In this document: piece after piece, positions 5,855 through 46,180 of the stretch
Layout: each line of letters begins with the position of its first letter
Numbering within the stretch: the stretch's first letter is position 1
DNA from: Octopus vulgaris
Taxonomy: Eukaryota
DNA length: 64,000 nucleotides
Reading direction: 5' to 3'
NCBI GenBank assembly: GCA_951406725.2
Contig: OX597816.1
Coordinates: 23,808,001 to 23,872,000, forward strand
Position numbers and translations under genes: made by a program
Notes under the pieces: model-generated
Databases searched by the model: none
Told to the model about the DNA's origin: nothing
What the model saw: only the letters and a program-made list of their open reading frames with translations

Positions 5855-6768
5855 TCACCGCCAACAACAAAAACCACCATTATATCATTGCCACTACCAC
5901 CACCACTATCACCAATACCACCACCACTACTATCACCACCACCACTACTATCACCACCAGCATCATCACTATCATCACCACCACCACCATCACCACCACC
6001 ACCACTATCACCACCACCACCACCATCACCATCACCACCACCATCACTACCACTGTAACCACCACCGCCACTACTATCACCGCTACCACCACTATCATCA
6101 CCACCACCATCACCACTAGCATCATCACCACCACCACTATCATTACCACCATCACCACTATCACCACCACCACCATCACTACTATCACTGCTACCACCAC
6201 TATCCACCATCACCACTAGCATCATCACCACCCTCACCACTATCATCACCACCACCACCACTATCATCACCACTACCGCACTACCACCACCACTACTATC
6301 ACCACCACCATCACCATCGCCATCACCACCACCATCACCACTATCATCACCACTACCACTATCATCACCACCACCACCACTGTCATCACCATCACAACTA
6401 CTACCATTACCTTTACCAAACTCACCAACACCACATCACGGCCAGCATCCTGAGCAGTAACCACCACAACCATCGCCGTCACCCGTATTATGAATACCAT
6501 CAATACCACTGTCAGAATCACCGATACCATTACTACCACCGCCATCACAACCACCAATACCCCTAACACCACCACCACCATCACTATCTCCACAACCACC
6601 GCCACCGCCACAACCACCTATACCACCACTACCACCAACACCACTATACCACCACTACCACCAACACCACTAACACCACCACACTATCACTATCTCCACT
6701 ACCAACACTACCACCACTACCACTACCACAACCACCACTACCACAACCACCACTACCACCACCACCAG
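5855..6768. repeat. Degenerate (ACC)/(ATC)/(ACT) triplet repeat
   Basis: Directly visible; explains the poly-V, poly-G and poly-T ORFs. Confidence 0.95.
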
Positions 6769-35895: not shown

Positions 35896-36744
35896 CAACG
35901 GCTGAGAACACACACTGTTGTGTCGATTAAGATAAATTAGAATTCGAATGAATGAGAGTACTCTCAGCTATTCCCAAACTAGGTTGCATGAGCAGTGTCT
36001 ATAATTTTAAAAGATTGTTCGTTCCTTCTCGAGCCATGCCTGGTTCATAAGGGCCGGTTTCCCGGTTTCCTTGGCGTACATGTTCCCCACCTGGACGGGA
36101 CGCCGGTTCGTCGCAGGTGAGCTGCAAGATGCAGGAGGAAAGAGAGGAAGTTGTGGCGAAAGAGTCAGCAGAAGTTCGCCATTACCTTCTGCCGGAGCCG
36201 CGTGGAGCATAAGTGTTTCGCTCATTAACACACACATCGCCCGGTCTGAGATGCGAACCCACGATCCCTCGACCGCGAGTCCGCTGCTCTAACCACTTGG
36301 ACATGTGCCTCCACAACGGCTGAGAATACAAACTGTTGTGTCGATTAAGACTAACCAGAACTCGAATGAGCGAGAACGCTCTCAGACAATCCGAAACTAG
36401 GTTGCATGAGCTGTGTCTACAATTTTAAAAGGTTGTTCGTTTTTTCTCGAGCCATGCCTGGCTCATACGGGTCGGTTTCCTTGGCGTATAGGTTCCCCAC
36501 CTGGACGGGACGCCGGTCCGTCGCAGGTGGGCTGCAAGATGCAGGAGGAAAGAGTGAGTGGAAGTTGTGGCGAAAGAGTCAGCAGAAGTTCACCATTACC
36601 TTCTGCCGGAGTCGCGTGGAGCTTAGGTGTTTCGCTCATAAACACACACATCGCCCGGTCTGAGATTCGAACCCACGATCTCTCGACCGCGAATCCGCTG
36701 CTCTAACCACTAGGCCATGTGTCTCCACACAATTTTAAAAGGTT
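35896..36744 (-). mobile_element. Two tRNA-derived SINE copies inside a ~420-bp tandem duplication
   Basis: Head related to family 3. The second copy is bounded by caattttaaaaggtt at 36420 and 36730. The flank caacggctgagaa...aggttgcatgagc is duplicated. Confidence 0.85.
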
Positions 36745-37973
36745 GCAGTGTAAAATCTATTATTACCGGGTTGCATAATGCGGCGAGCTGGCAGAATCGT
36801 TAACACATTAGCCAAAATGCTTAGCAGCATTTGTTCTGACTTTGCATTCCGAGTTCAAATTTTGCGAAGGTCAAATTTGCCCTTTATCTTGTCAAGGTAG
36901 ATAAGATAAGTACTAGTAATCGGCTAGAAACCCAGCGCCCAAATTTCAGGCCTTGTTCCTTTAGTAGAAAGATTAATTATCCAGATATAATTATTCATTT
37001 CATATATGTTTTAGCTGTTAAGATGCGCGGCCTAGTGGTTAAGGTGGTTTCGATTCCCAGGTCGGGGGTTGAGTAGGTGTTCTTGAACAAAACATTAGTT
37101 TATTACAGACTTTCTGCTGCTTCCTGCATGGGAAAAGGCAGGAACATGGGAGATGGACACAAAACGCGTTGACGCTCGACAGTCAGGCCAAGAATGAAAG
37201 ATCATGGTTGGCAGGACACACAATCGTCTGAAGATCCGCAACGTGAAACTCGGAACTCGAAACAGGGTTATTAGAATATAGCGCTGTTTATATAAGTATT
37301 TACTTCCTTACATTATTTATCTTGTTCCTGTATGTCTGTAAGTATGTATGTATGTGTGTATATATATATATATAGGAAAAAAGCAACAAGAATGGATTAA
37401 AATCTCGGTACGATCGTTTCGTACGAGGACATCTTTAATAAGCTACAAAAAATGCAGTGAATACAGATGGCTCGTACTCGTCAGCCGAAAAAACATCAGA
37501 GAATTCCCAAACATCAAAAGGGGTAGATACAAAAGAGGTTGTAAGATTAACTGCATTGAAGAAAGTTCGATTCATGGAGATCCGATGAATGGTTTTAAAC
37601 TTACAGAATTTGTGCATGTCTACATATAGCTCATATTAAATTGCTAATCAAGTTGTGTGAAGAAATTTTCGGATACAGTCATGCAAAATTTCTGAAAATC
37701 CGAGTAAGAAGCAAAATGACTGTCATATCGTGTAGAGGAAAGTCTGAGTAAAAAGCAAAGTGACTGTCATAACGTGTAGAGGAACAGATTGATATTGAAA
37801 TTTACAAGAATCGCAGATAAGTTCAAGAATCGAACTTTTTTCCTATTTATTAATCACCCCACTTGTCGTATGGTTAACACCATATAGATTTCCGGTGCAT
37901 CCTAGTTAAGGACCATATTCATGTGAATTCTTTAGAATTCACTTGAATTAACTTGAATCTCAATCACTTAACC

Positions 37974-38027
<54 letters not shown>

Positions 38028-38031
<4 letters not shown>

Positions 38032-38226
38032 ACAGTTTACGAGAAAAACAAAACACGAAGACAGGTGGTGTACAAAACAAACAGATGTATTAGTAGAACG
38101 CTCAGGAATAGAAAAAGTCTTTTACGTTTCGAGCCTACGCTCTTCTACAGAAAGGGACACAGAAAAAAACAAGGAGAGAAACAAGGAGAGAAAAAAGTGT
38201 GTGTAGTGGCTAACGATCTATCATGG
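38028..38226 (-). mobile_element. Short HHR-bearing element (family C) abutting (TA)n
   Basis: Minus strand reads cttt-CTGTAGA-a-GAGC gtag GCTC-GAAA-cg-TA-aaag at 38119-38154. Near-identical copy at 60419-60625. Confidence 0.7.
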
Positions 38227-38306
38227 CAACGAAAGATGTATAGGATGGCGAATATTCTTAGAAATTTCACCACCAGTGGCCTAGCATGTATAAAATGTCA
38301 ATAGAC

Positions 38307-38506
38307 AACATATTCTTATTTTAAAATTGTGTACATTTAAACACAAGAGAAAACTACCTTTAACAGGTTATTTTTACTAGCTAGAAAAGCAGTCAAAATG
38401 ACGTGGTTTTGGTCGCTTTGACTGCTTTTTCTAGCGTGTAAAAATTATCTGTTAAAGGTAGTTTTCTCTTGTGTTTAAATGTGCACTCTTTTATATTGAG
38501 AATATG

Positions 38507-38508
<2 letters not shown>
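38307..38508. repeat. ~200-bp imperfect palindrome
   Basis: catttaaacacaagagaaaactacctttaacag and ctgttaaaggtagttttctcttgtgtttaaatg are exact reverse complements. Confidence 0.9.
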
Positions 38509-38548
<40 letters not shown>

Positions 38549-38673
38549 CATATTCCGCTCGAAACGTTAAACCCTCCTTCTTCCCTTCTTTCCTGAGCGT
38601 ACAATAATACTTTATTTGTTCTACGTCCTCGCGTTGTTGTGTTTTTTCGTTTTTTGTGTTTTCTTGTTTGGAT

Positions 38674-38700
<27 letters not shown>

Positions 38701-38709
<9 letters not shown>

Positions 38710-39493
38710 GACAAAAAAAAAATTTTGTAGAATCTTATTGCCACCAGCGGCCTAGTGGGAAAAAATTAAATAGTCATAAACCATTTTTAAGTTCAACATC
38801 ACAATCAAGGAACGGCCATAATAGGCCATTCACCCACTAGAAATAACAGCCAAAAGCTTCAACCGCAAAATAACATCAATTCCGTAAACCAGGAGAAAAT
38901 TAAAAAAACATTTACCCTGTAATTTCTTATACGATGCACCGTTTCATCTACTGTTTAATGGTAAACTAACCTGATTAAATTAAATCAAGCCAATCTACCA
39001 TAGGCCCTTAGATTCATCAGTAAGAAATAGCCAAGTCGGAACAGATATTTTTCACGAGGCATTCTCATCCCTGCCTCGGCAATATCTGACCTAAAATTTT
39101 CAAATCATCGCACTCGCGCCAAATTTATCGGCAGCAAATAAATATAAGCCGCCGATTCCATTACGGAACTAACCAGAAAATTCATAATTAATCAATATAG
39201 GGTGACAAAAAAAAAAAAAAAATTTTGTAGAATCTTATTGCCACCAGCGGCCTAGTGGGAAAAAATTAAATAGTCATAAACCATTTTTAAGTTCAACATC
39301 ACAATCAAGGAACGGCCATAATAGGCCATTCACCCACTAGAAATAACAGCCAAAAGCTTCAACCGCAAAATAACATCAATTCCGTAAACCAGGAGAAAAT
39401 TAAAAAAACATTTACCCTGTAATTTCTTATACGATGCACCGTTTCATCTACTGTTTAATGGTAAACTAACCTGATTAAATTAAATCAAGCCAA
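38701..39493 (-). mobile_element. Retrozyme-like unit A: 1.6 tandem copies of a ~494-bp non-coding unit
   Basis: 39195-39493 repeats 38701-38993 and differs only in the length of an A-run. The unit carries a complete hammerhead. Confidence 0.8.
38922..39028 (-). ncRNA. Type I hammerhead ribozyme A
   Basis: Minus strand reads ATTTCTTA-CTGATGA-ATCTA..(58 nt)..TAGAT-GAAA-CGGTGCATCG-TA/TAAGAAAT. Perfect 8-bp helix I, intact core, GUA site. Confidence 0.85.
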
Positions 39494-39559
39494 GGCTCGA
39501 CACCGTCACGGTGCCCTTAACCTGCAAAGGGAGGTAATTCCCCGATGAAGCGGAAACCA

Positions 39560-39605
39560 CACACGGACCATGGTTTCAAGGTGTATTGCCTATCATCGGC
39601 GTGTG
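39560..39605 (-). ncRNA. Type I hammerhead B (inverted copy)
   Basis: Reverse complement of 40091-40136. Confidence 0.7.
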
Positions 39606-40090
39606 GTAGGCCTCCGCTTCCTCGACGAATTCTCACTCTGCAGGATTTTCTTATATAGATTTTCAAGCAAAATACATTTGCTGATTTCGAAAATCTGTTC
39701 GAAAGCAATAATAATTCTCTAAAAGGGATATAGACAGTAACTGCTCGATAACATAAGGGACTAAAGCCATCTGAATATGGCTAGGGACAGGGCAGGGTGG
39801 TGGGGGTGTTACTGTTGCATTTAGCCCCAGGCGAACATCACCTTTCTGGTGACGTCGATGTTCGCCTGGGGCTAAATGCAACAGTAACACCCCCACCACC
39901 CTGCCCTGTCCCTAGCCATATTCAGATGGCTTTAGTCCCTTATGTTATCGAGCAGTTACTGTCTATATCCCTTTTAGAGAATTATTATTGCTTTCGAACA
40001 GATTTTCGAAATCAGCAAATGTATTTTGCTTGAAAATCTATATAAGAAAATCCTGCAGAGTGAGAATTCGTCGAGGAAGCGGAGGCCTAC

Positions 40091-40136
40091 CACACGCCGA
40101 TGATAGGCAATACACCTTGAAACCATGGTCCGTGTG
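40091..40136 (+). ncRNA. Type I hammerhead B
   Basis: CACACG-CCGATGA-t-AGG caataca CCT-t-GAAA-CCATGG-TC/CGTGTG. Helix I is extended by gaagcgga (40076-83) pairing with tccgcttc (40142-49). Confidence 0.72.
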
Positions 40137-40450
40137 TGGTTTCCGCTTCATCGGGGAATTACCTCCCTTTGCAGGTTAAGGGCACCGTGACGGTGTCGAG
40201 CCTTTCTGGTGACGTCGATGTTCGCCTGGGGCTAAATGCAACAGTAACACCCCCACCACCCTGCCCTGTCCCTAGCCATATTCAGATGGCTTTAGTCCCT
40301 TATGTTATCGAGCAGTTACTGTCTATATCCCTTTTAGAGAATCATTATTGCTTTCGAACAGATTTTCGAAATCAGCAAATGTATTTTGCTTGAAAATCTA
40401 TATAAGAAAATCCTGCAGAGTGAGAATTCGTCGAGGAAGCGGAGGCCTAC

Positions 40451-40496
40451 CACACGCCGATGATAGGCAATACACCTTGAAACCATGGTCCGTGTG
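40451..40496 (+). ncRNA. Type I hammerhead B (second tandem copy)
   Basis: Identical to 40091-40136. Confidence 0.72.
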
Positions 40497-40662
40497 TGGT
40501 TTCCGCTTCATCGGGGAATTACCTCCCTTTGCAGGTTAAGGGCACCGTGACGGTGTCGAGCCTTTCTGGTGACGTCGATGTTCGCCTGGGGCTAAATGCA
40601 ACAGTAACACCCCCACCACCCTGCCCTGTCCCTAGCCATATTCAGATGGCTTTAGTCCCTTA

Positions 40663-40700
<38 letters not shown>

Positions 40701-40837: not shown

Positions 40838-41395
40838 ATTGTGTGTTTGTATTAATGTAACTTATCAGGTAGATAGATGATAGATAAATGGACAGAAACG
40901 AACAGACAAACAGACAGACAGATAGACAGGTGTATATTTAGCCTATGCAATAAATTAGTTGAATGTGCTTAGAGAAGTCGGCGGTGAAATCACTCTAACA
41001 ATGCCAGGATAGGTTCTAAGCAATAAAAACATTTAGATTCGCTGCAACGACTTAAGGACTTAAATCTTAACAGGATGAAGTATAATAGGTAGATGGAAGA
41101 TGCTCAGAAGTGGAGGAAGTAGAGATAGTCGGAAGGTAGAAGGGATTAAAATGACATAGATGAGGCGTAAGAGGGTTCGAAAATCAAACATACGCTCGCA
41201 CACACGCACAAACAGACGCACACACACACACGCACACATGCACATACATATATACATACACACATACAGAAACAAGATAAATAATGTAAGGAAGTAATTA
41301 TTTATATAAAGGGCGCTATATTCTAATAACTCTGTTTCGATTTCCGAGTTTCACGTTGCCGATCTTCAGACGATTGTGTGTCCGGCCAGCCATGA

Positions 41396-41712
41396 CTTTT
41401 TACTTGTTTCAGTTATTTGACTGCGGCCACGCTGGAGCACCGCCTTTAGTCAAAAGAATCGAAGCCCGAGACTTATTCTTTGTAAGCCAAGTACTTATTC
41501 TATCGGTCGCTTTAGCCGAACCGCTAGATAACGGAGACGTAAACACACCAACATCGGTTGTCAAGTGGGGGGGGACCAAACACCGACACACAAATACATA
41601 TATACATACATACACACACACATATATATACGACGGGCTTTTTTCAGTTTCTGCCTACCAAACCACTCGCAAGGCTTTGGTCGGCCCGAGGCTATAGTGG
41701 AAGACACTTGCC
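41396..41712 (-). mobile_element. SINE family 1, 5' truncated
   Basis: Body and tail match. Confidence 0.8.
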
Positions 41713-43448: not shown

Positions 43449-45410
43449 CTAGGCACCACGCAGTGCGCCCGTTCTGGCATTTGCGTAACTCTCGATGCCA
43501 AAGTTCAGGACACTTCCCTCCAGGATCTTCCAGATGTATATTATGGCATATCTTTCCCGCCTACGCTCCAGGGAATATAATTTTAATCTCTTGAGTCTTT
43601 CCCAGTAGCTTACATTCTGCATAGAGGCTATCTTCTTTGTGTAGCTTCGTTGGATCGCCTCAAGTTCTGTGATCAACTTGACACTGGATGGTGACCATAG
43701 CTGAGAGCAATAGTCAAAGTGGCTTAGGACAAGTGTCTTCCAGAGGACCATCATGGTTTCTTGTTCTCTTGTTCTAAAGGTTCTAAGAATCCAGCCAGCC
43801 AGCCGTCTACATTTCATTGTCAGTTTAGCAACATGTACATGAAAGGTCGCGTCATCACTCATGTGAATACCCAGGTCACGCACTGATTGTGCCTCTGGGA
43901 TTGCAATCCCTCCGGGTCCAGTGTATTCATTGGGTATTGCATTCAGTTTTGCATGCTGATAGTATAAAGCTTGAAACTTTCCAGCATTGAACTGCATGCT
44001 ATTCTTTTCAGCCCACTTGTATATTTCGTCCAGCTCACATTGCAGGTGTTTAGTGTCCTCAGAGTTCTGTATTGCCTGTGAAACTTTTGTATCATCTGCA
44101 TAACTTGTGATCGTGGCTCTCTGCGTGGCTGAGGGCATGTCTGAGAGGGCCATTATGAACAGTAGTGGTCCCAGAACAGTGCCCTGCGGAACACCGCTCA
44201 CTATTTGTGTGTTAATGGAGGTGGCCCCATTGGCTACTACCACCTGACTTCTATCCTTCAGAAAGTCATGAAGCCATTCTCCCAGTTTTCCAACTATGTT
44301 GAGATCACGCAGTTTGTGACATATCATTCCATGATCGACTTTATCAAAGGCCTTTGCAAAGTCGAGATATATCACTTCCACATTTGAGTGGTTGAGCAGC
44401 CGTTTCAGCACCCAGTCATAGTGTTGTAGGAGCTGAGTTAAACAGCTTCTTCCTGGTCGGAAACCATGTTGGGTGTCGGGCAGCAAGTCATTCTCTTCAA
44501 GGAAGGTGATCAGCTTCCTTCTGACTATTCGTTCCATGACCTTGCTGATGTGTGAGGTCAGAGAGATAGGTCTATAGTTCTTGGCTTCCGCTCTGCTACC
44601 TCCTTTATGAATGGGGCATATTTTACCTTCCTTCAGTATTCCTGGAAGTTTGCCAGCTGCAAGGAAGCTCTGAAAGAGGAACTGCAGTGGTCTTGCTAGG
44701 ACTCTCTTACATGCTTTTAGGAGGATTGCCGGGAATCCATCGGGGCCAGTAGCTGAGTCTGTTTTCATTTCATCTATAGCCTTGGTTACATCGTCTTCCT
44801 TTATATCGATGTAATCTATCGTCGCCGCCTCTGATTTTATATCTGCAGTGGTAAAAAAGTCAGTTGGATTGGTGATTTGGAGATGCCCAAGGGGTGGAGT
44901 GAAAACACTCTTGAATTGCTCATTTAGTATTTCACTTACCCTCATTGGTTTTCCTGTAAGTGTGCCATCCTTTTCGAGGAGTGGCCCTATTCTACAGTGC
45001 ACTGTAGCTGTTTCTTTGGCATACCTGTAGAAAGCTCTGGGGTTAGATTTTATGTTTTCTATAGCCCAGGCTTCTTTGTCTGCTCTTTCTTTTTCATGGG
45101 AGAGTTGCAGACATTTTTCGATTTCCAACAGTTTTATTTTTAGGCGGGACTTTTCACTGCTTTCAATCTGTTTGTTTAGGCGATTTGAAAATTTCGTACG
45201 CCGTCTCATTAAAATTTTCCTCTCTCTGGGGATTTTGTTCTTGTGTACAGTGGCCTTTCTCTCTGGGACACATTTGTAGCATATGGCTTGCATTACAGAC
45301 ATGAATTGTTGAAGTTTCACGTCGATGTCTGGCGAGGAGAGACATTTAGGCCAGTTTTGTTTGAGGATCTCTTTCTCAATTTGTTTCCAGTTTGCCTTAT
45401 GGTAGTTCAA
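43449..45410 (-). pseudogene. LINE ORF2 reverse transcriptase portion (653 aa open, frameshifted at both ends)
   Basis: GPDG, NYRPISLTS, QHGFR, YLDFAKAFDKVDH, SGVPQGTVLGPLLF, YADD and DLG motifs. Confidence 0.95.
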
Positions 45411-46150
45411 GCTGGAAAGATTTTGAGGTTTCTTGTAGGCTGCATGTCCGTGCTCTCTTTTGGCCCGTACATGGTCAGCTCTATCATGTTGTGATCCGAG
45501 AGTAGTGTCGGTGTCACTTTCACATTATGGATGAGATCCATGTCATTTGTGAAGCAGAGATCCAGTGTGTTACCTGCCCTGGTTGGTTGGAGTATTACCT
45601 GCTCCATGTACAGGGTGTTGATGAGGTTCAGGAGGGAACTCGCCTCTCCTCGTTCACATCTTGTCATTCCTGGGAGATAAAGGCCCTCGGGCCATCTGAC
45701 ATTGGGCAGATTGAAGTCTCCCATAAGAAGCACACCTATGTGTTGTTCTAATGTGGTTAGAATTTCTTCTATTTTTATAAGGCAGTCTTCAAACTTGCCC
45801 ACATGGCTTGGGGCATCTGGAGGGCGATATGTAGCACACACAACTACATCAAGTTGCCTAATATGTACAATTAGTGTGTCACACACCGAGTTTGAGTATG
45901 ACAAGAGGACCTGGGGTGTGAGGTCCTCACGGATGTACATAGCAACACCTCCATGACTCCTTTCTTTCCTGTCGGTCCGTAGTACAGCATACTGTGGTAT
46001 GTGTAACTCCGCATCTGCTATGTCCGGTTTCAGGTGCGTTTCTGTAAGTGCTATGCATAAGGCTTGATTGCATGCAACAAAGTCTCTCAGGAACGGGATC
46101 TTTGTCCTGTTACTGAGTGTTTGCAGTCCTCTGATGTTCAGTAGGAGTAT
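45407..46150 (-). pseudogene. LINE ORF2 apurinic-like endonuclease domain
   Basis: LLNIRGL, LTETHL, DR..GGVA, YRPP, GDFN, TLDL and SDH motifs, read in one frame starting upstream of the listed ORF. Confidence 0.93.
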
Positions 46151-46180
46151 CGAGGTGAGGTGTACGTTGTTTATTTTTTA

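Follow-up and report, generated by a model that had tools for sequence, protein, structure and literature searches.

A conserved hammerhead motif with a long helix II in a tandem-repeat family of Octopus vulgaris, probably copied into (TA)n by a Penelope-like enzyme

A locus joining two hammerhead-bearing families

The window analysed here is a stretch of 64,000 nucleotides from Octopus vulgaris (contig OX597816.1, positions 23,808,001 to 23,872,000). Within it, a (TA)n tract, an arm of putative retrozyme A, an inverted piece of putative retrozyme B, an arm of B and an (AT)n tract follow one another:

38678..38705, unstranded: (TA)n target, left flank
38706..39493, minus strand: left arm, about 1.6 units of retrozyme A, with its 3' end in (TA)n
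39492..39493, unstranded: A/B junction, a 2-nt microhomology, occurring once in the genome
39492..39839, minus strand: 348 nt of retrozyme B in inverted orientation, containing a single hammerhead B (39606-39557)
39841..40668, plus strand: right arm, made up of 2.3 retrozyme B units of 360 nt each and stopping at family B's short end
40090-40139 and 40450-40499, plus strand: hammerheads B of the right arm; here, as in the inverted piece, the core is CCGAUGA and U-U forms the base of helix II
40665..40695, unstranded: (AT)n target, right flank

Unit A contributes one complete and one half hammerhead to this locus, and the 3' end of its arm stops about 11 nt before the long end usual in the family. 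Its period, ~491 nt in the family, is 500 nt here because of a longer T run. The unit is without a frame of at least 120 aa, and G+C is 0.36 over 38001-40000. As in retrozymes, complete motifs occur at least twice in succession in family A, whose arrays reach 14 units. Both families are present in contigs from six sequencing runs, where no contig among those listed spans the A/B junction, an absence that carries no weight. Hammerhead B has 794 exact matches in the genome.

The surroundings hold further repeats. A third type I hammerhead-like motif, single-copy in the window, lies on the minus strand at 37403-37490, with a CUGACGA core, a 7-bp helix II carrying a 43-nt insert and a palindromic GAUC in helix III. 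A 414-bp unit, which we take to be of tRNA-like SINE type, is tandemly duplicated at 35896-36729, and a LINE-like endonuclease and reverse transcriptase (RT) region extends over two frames at 43449-46177 (minus strand). Inverted repeats of 160 nt (91%) at 37197-37356 and 41241-41400 flank the whole locus, and others of 88 nt (86%) lie directly to its left at 38301-38514; these are probably common dispersed repeats.

Anatomy and conservation of hammerhead A

An earlier note on this DNA had described hammerhead A on the minus strand, and the motif was borne out letter for letter. Its parts, with the hairpin of helix II and the upstream half copy added, are:

38922..39028, minus strand: hammerhead A, with all parts of a type I motif
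39028-39021/38929-38922, minus strand: helix I, 8 bp, 5' strand at 39021..39028; 39429-39422 is an alternative partner in the predicted double fold
39020-39014, minus strand: core CUGAUGA, position 7 being any of the four letters among copies
39013-39009/38950-38946, minus strand: helix II, 5 bp, 5' strand at 39009..39013; 58 nt (39008-38951) separate the strands
39001-38983/38976-38958, minus strand: 19-bp hairpin extending helix II past a 7x7 internal loop, -22.1 kcal/mol, with an inner UAGAU in its stem
38945-38942, minus strand: GAAA, spanning 38931..38945 together with helix III
38942-38931, minus strand: helix III, self-complementary ACGGUGCAUCGU with a palindromic UGCA loop, by sequence and folding
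38930/38929, minus strand: predicted canonical cleavage site after GUA, by sequence and hammerhead consensus
39422..39493, minus strand: half hammerhead of the truncated upstream copy, lacking CUGAUGA and keeping helix III, a GUA site at 39430/39429 and the 3' strand of helix I

Three helices surround the core and helix I is open, the arrangement of a type I hammerhead by anatomy and covariation, and the conserved 7x7 internal loop occupies the expected place of loop II. The second UAGAU that the note had placed inside the helix II insertion is present (38997-38993), and the upstream tandem copy is indeed truncated inside the 58-nt stretch, at the junction with unit B (39492/39493, within the 2-nt microhomology). 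A descriptor with helix lengths of 8/5/4 bp, one of the checks proposed at the time, matched once in the window and in none of 100 block-shuffled windows, and the motif folds with z = -4.8 against 40 shuffles. An Rfam search, also proposed, gave no hammerhead match at the locus, neither at gathering score nor at E up to 10; matches near the locus were microRNA models on simple repeats and inverted B arms. The Rfam covariance models were probably defeated by the long helix II.

The genome holds at least 1,768 exact matches to core plus helix III and none to the reversed pattern. A G10.1 subfamily of unit A has 428 matches, and older subfamilies of 75–86% identity have 175, three or four among those listed being unrelated or junction matches. 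Where samples were chosen without the core, CUGANGA is kept in 99 of 100 copies among those listed and the whole core in 53 of 55; across 227 copies from 83 loci, selected partly by core pattern, all 11 fixed core letters are kept in 223. Any of the four letters can stand at position 7 in these 227 copies; position 17 is restricted to A, C and, in a single copy, U, and is never G. Variants fixed in at least two loci occur in 0 of 11 core columns and in 28 of 96 others, again in a partly core-selected sample. The pair 10.1-11.1 is A-U, the state of the window, in 124 copies, A-C in 52, G-U in 46 and U-U in 5.

Covariation was assessed on 30 variants, namely the window copy and 29 of 36 distinct haplotypes, seven near-duplicate or junction-damaged rows having been dropped. 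Ten of 36 pairs are altered on both sides across subfamilies (5/8 in helix I, 3/5 in helix II and 1/4 in helix III), and 92% of cells, which represent sequences rather than independent events, are paired in the full fold, against 28–45% in slid controls. The true fold also beats 500 of 500 column shuffles, a test inflated by relatives; we therefore weighed the number of changed pairs. Core and helices are conserved among genomic copies, with a near-invariant core, in agreement with the note's reading. Anatomy, core conservation and covariation support both the hammerhead identity and the canonical site, and on this comparative evidence we regard hammerhead A as a real motif under selection.

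The helix II arm

According to the earlier note, the 58 nt between the helix II strands form a loop whose inner UAGAU could pair with AUCUA and turn the ribozyme off. Folding predicts no open loop; the 7x7 internal loop leads into the 19-bp hairpin. The inner UAGAU exists, and its five pairs are feasible in 128 of 227 sampled copies if G-U is allowed, but the outer fold reaches -31.9 kcal/mol and the forced inner fold -17.2 kcal/mol, a penalty of ~14.7 kcal/mol under constrained folding. The isolated inner hairpin has -0.1 kcal/mol, and inner pairing has a probability of at most 0.004 in 13 of 13 transcript prefixes, even before the 3' arm of the 19-bp hairpin exists, and of at most 0.07 across the 30 variants. 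It is matched by 379 of 500 column shuffles of those variants and lacks covariation: substitutions in the 5' strand of helix II are matched by the outer partner and not by the inner UAGAU. The exact UAGAU occurs in 79 of the 227 copies and is lost or unpairable in the older subfamilies. Two conserved folds of comparable energy were not found for the inner UAGAU, and a switch is not supported by these models; we consider it very improbable and read the inner UAGAU as part of the hairpin stem.

The long arm is kept in all 30 variants, largely through one-sided changes, and its pair 38997/38962 is broken in 25 of them. An intron within the arm (GT at 38998, AG at 38951) was rejected because GT is missing in AAGAU subfamilies and AG in the G10.1 subfamily, as was a short frame starting from the AUG in the core, which is not conserved and whose position 7 varies. 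The placing of the junction within the arm, to which the note had drawn attention, carries no special meaning: 10 of 122 5' breakpoints of family A fall in the hairpin against 10.9 expected (a few 5' ends near unit position 1 being uncertain because of the query boundary), and a hairpin-induced hotspot at the A/B junction was rejected on this expected frequency.

Insertion footprint and candidate mobilising enzyme

Insertions of A lie in (TA)n and mostly have two outward-facing arms. Among 159 arm 3' ends, 72 are near unit position 29, 62 near position 415 and 25 elsewhere, giving two fixed ends ~105 nt apart. One arm per fixed end is found in 43 of 53 two-armed loci and the same end twice in none; for unit B, whose ends are separated by 44 nt, 31 of 37 two-armed loci follow this pattern. 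The same A end at 38798 recurs in contigs from other sequencing runs. That ribozyme cleavage sets the insertion ends was rejected, as none of the 159 3' ends or 122 5' ends of family A lies at the cleavage site. Fold-back as the usual centre of A loci was likewise rejected (5' ends within 20 nt in 6/53, p = 0.45).

The two arms of a locus generally agree. In 57 of 59 loci both belong to one haplotype, as do 13.5% of random pairs; differences at three or more diagnostic sites separate the arms of 2 of 59 loci and the members of 86.5% of random pairs. In 10 of 62 loci both arms carry a variant found in no other sampled locus. With 83 of several hundred loci sampled, this agreement is consistent with a single template, probably a circle, being copied repeatedly; a homogeneous source array could also account for the shared haplotypes. 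Some loci are rearranged. In L260, L272 and L014, two-armed insertions have taken up foreign stretches of 92–263 nt at the central junction or close to it, and L123, L008 and L272 have rearrangements within an arm, such as repeated unit A segments 183-423, which suggest template jumps on the same RNA.

The genome contains intact elements with RT and GIY-YIG domains, their 781-aa frame occurring in many copies, whose cysteine linker we take to be of Neptune type. Intact Penelope-like elements end in (AT)n at two sites ~40 nt apart. Two alternative ends constitute the Penelope tail, traced to two internal start sites (PMC11167929), and such tails are described at microsatellite targets (PMC11167929, PMC8557442); the described tail is 30–40 nt long, against ~105 nt for A. 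Family A shares the one-end tail, the inverted truncated copy and the microsatellite target that make up a Penelope-type footprint, and by this sequence footprint a Neptune-type Penelope-like enzyme is the likely agent of its copying into (TA)n.

Unit A showed no homology to Penelope ends (pseudo-LTRs) in 65 loci, drawn from 150 scored among 6,136 endonuclease candidates, and no autonomous partner of unit A was found among the Penelope loci compared. L187, a candidate through a weak B match, was rejected, the match being a neighbouring B-like repeat. A young intact Penelope-like family (L176 2439-4784, L178, L181-L184) has the 781-aa frame for RT and endonuclease. Upstream of this frame, and overlapping it, is one of 479 aa that fits no Pfam family clearly; the 3' region of these elements showed no plain hammerhead core. 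The Penelope family of L187, L189 and L299 has a CCGAAGA or CUGAAGA core in the 3' region.

Fusion of A and B

The A/B junction was found once in the genome, and a propagating A/B chimera was rejected. A second clean fusion lies at C1:70.53 Mb, with a different A subfamily, and less clear-cut joins between A and B-like relatives occur in 2 more of the 83 A loci. Other repeats related to B, likewise with a (TA)n end, were seen at L013 2186-2417, L187 about 6080-6317 and L113, two of them joined to A arms. The 5' ends of many B arms lie around unit positions 349-20, where transcripts may start or stall; the query boundary accounts for part of this pattern.

The simplest reading of the fusion is probably one insertion event that used two RNAs. 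A less probable course, though a possible one, is that two insertions entered one (TA)n tract and were later joined by a microhomology deletion. Both families favour (TA)n, A and B copies stand 105 nt of TA apart at C5:30.96 Mb, and the junction here has 2-nt microhomology, with just two clean A/B fusions found. Both fusions, however, consist of outward-facing arms with no TA between them, and both join the A long end to the B short end as pure loci join long to short, a rule that with n = 2 and a chance of ~1 in 4 is weak evidence. The inverted B piece, moreover, stops within 4 nt of the start of the right arm, the geometry of twin priming; for this piece, twin priming and fold-back both fit.

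Helix III and predicted cleavage between units

All statements on activity derive from folding models, which include no tertiary contacts and underrate three-way junctions. In the lone motif, helix III has a probability of ~0.02, mispairing of the core with helix III (UGAUG with CAUCG) one of 0.30–0.44, and the active monomer fold lies 1.9–2.9 kcal/mol above the predicted minimum. Across units, helix III reaches 0.8–1.0 in all four natural two-unit stretches folded. The first crossed helix I forms in three of these and the second well in at most two; the second is poor (<0.1) in two of the four, and neither forms in one. For five of six helix III variants, pairing of two copies with each other extends over all 12 bp (-13.6 to -18.8 kcal/mol), against just -2.9 to +1.1 kcal/mol for the same variants as hairpins. 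The helix III loop is UGCA in 71 of 83 loci, UAUA in 11, a change that may be one event inherited by those loci, and the non-palindromic UACA in 1, and older subfamilies have perfect or near-perfect 12-nt palindromes in helix III. A tetraloop change that keeps the palindrome makes sense if the loops of two units pair with each other. Family A combines, in these models, the weak helix III and the palindromic loop pairing between copies that characterise double hammerheads, and hammerhead A likely cleaves mainly as a double hammerhead between neighbouring units.

This bears on the cleavage site. The position predicted by the earlier note, 38930/38929, stands as the canonical one; in a read-through transcript the predicted cut lies elsewhere. 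The upstream half copy keeps helix III and GUA, and the intact core is therefore predicted to act at 39430/39429: in the read-through fold helix III has a probability of 0.92–1.0, the crossed helix I one of 0.33–0.76 and the local helix I one of 0.0.

Alternatively, with element and mobiliser unchanged, the hammerhead might cleave efficiently in single units, and its palindromic loop would then either survive as a relic or act as a booster. Past A15.1-U16.1, helix III counts three pairs, compared with 1–2 bp in typical dimer-type motifs (PMC4209133), invertebrate retrozyme motifs are reported to cleave as monomers (PMC7229834), and the active fold is close to the predicted minimum. We nevertheless think this rather unlikely, given the loop change that preserves the palindrome, the 12-nt palindromes of older subfamilies and the mispairing predicted in the monomer. 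Weighing against the dimer reading, cleavage was reported in only one of nine predicted dimer elements by Li et al. (10.64898/2026.07.22.740005). A still less probable view is that the ribozyme is catalytically marginal and its structure is kept for recognition by a Penelope protein, or depends on that protein for folding. In the anole, the Penelope hammerhead required protein for cleavage and was dispensable for insertion, ribozyme mutants leaving insertion in vitro unaffected (PMC11167929). Arrays of unit A continue through the cleavage site, and copies with A-C or U-U at 10.1-11.1 have spread; since the A-C mismatch stands in 52 of the 227 sampled copies, activity may be dispensable. Against a marginal ribozyme, variation obeys catalytic rules: fixed variants avoid the core columns, position 7 is unconstrained and G is absent from position 17, albeit in the partly core-selected sample. 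Cleavage as a double hammerhead remains our preferred reading of the folding models.

Comparison with known systems

Family A resembles animal non-LTR retrozymes in its non-coding tandem units with one type I hammerhead each, its low G+C and the coexistence of Penelope-like elements (PMC7229834; 10.64898/2026.07.22.740005; Cervera and de la Pena 2020; Li, Clavereau and Pollet 2026). At ~491 nt its unit is above the 170–400 nt of PMC7229834 and inside the 51–972 bp of Li et al. (10.64898/2026.07.22.740005). Unlike those retrozymes, it has a 58-nt arm on helix II and is known here from DNA alone. Two-armed insertions with two fixed ends and fusions between families are not described for retrozymes in the available parts of PMC7229834 and 10.64898/2026.07.22.740005.

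Double hammerheads in tandem repeats are described in PMC4209133 (citing Forster 1988) and the legend of figure S8 in PMC3088659. Those of the newt and axolotl satellite, ASBVd and Penelope share with unit A a palindromic helix III and loop that could pair between tandem copies (PMC4209133; PMC3088659). Compared with them, unit A has a longer, 12-nt palindrome, an 8-bp helix I and a long helix II, and the loop change among its subfamilies supports pairing between units. Partial tandems, an inverted 5'-truncated copy, a tail at one end and microsatellite targets are shared with Neptune-type Penelope-like elements (PMC8557442; PMC11167929), from which unit A differs in having no RT or endonuclease frame and in its ~105-nt tail. 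Chimeric LINE-1 retrocopies and twin priming (PMC13174262, PMC4476161) resemble the fusion in joining two RNAs in one insertion and in inversion geometry; they differ in enzyme class, whereas A and B are both ribozyme-bearing and non-autonomous, each with its own fixed start site.

We found no report of family A, of the 58-nt arm or of fused retrozymes in the main texts of the listed literature on hammerheads in this animal group, long stem II, dimers and chimeras; long-helix motifs may be drawn in supplements.

A model for family A

We consider it quite probable that hammerhead A is a conserved long-helix-II hammerhead in a ~491-nt non-LTR retrozyme that cleaves mainly as a dimer and is copied into (TA)n by a Neptune-type Penelope-like enzyme. 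A multimeric transcript of unit A would be made, in which two units would pair through the 12-nt self-complementary helix III and be cut after GUH, as folding and loop covariation suggest. The monomers would then circularise, and the poor folding of helix III in a single unit would protect the circle from renewed cleavage. A Penelope enzyme, to which the footprint points, would nick (TA)n and prime from both DNA ends at two fixed internal sites ~105 nt apart, leaving back-to-back arms. The two arms of an insertion are usually of one haplotype; at this locus, RNAs of A and of B would have served, probably in one event. More tentatively, and with distinctly less confidence, the Penelope enzyme could be a dimer with a long-start and a short-start template site, able to accept two RNAs, while the palindrome gate and core-to-helix-III mispairing protect monomer circles.

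How animal retrozyme circles escape re-cutting, and which enzyme copies them, are left as open questions in PMC7229834. Since the retrozyme class, the double hammerhead and the Penelope link have all been published, the gain is moderate, and the A/B fusion is a modest addition to a known kind of element. If the tentative reading of an enzyme dimer is true, mixed A/B insertions would record a two-site Penelope machine that normally works on one retrozyme circle. The conserved 58-nt arm represents a hammerhead form overlooked by Rfam models. Family A offers natural subfamily variants, including the loop change, that are suited to testing the dimer gate, and a clear Penelope footprint together with intact candidate enzymes in the same genome.
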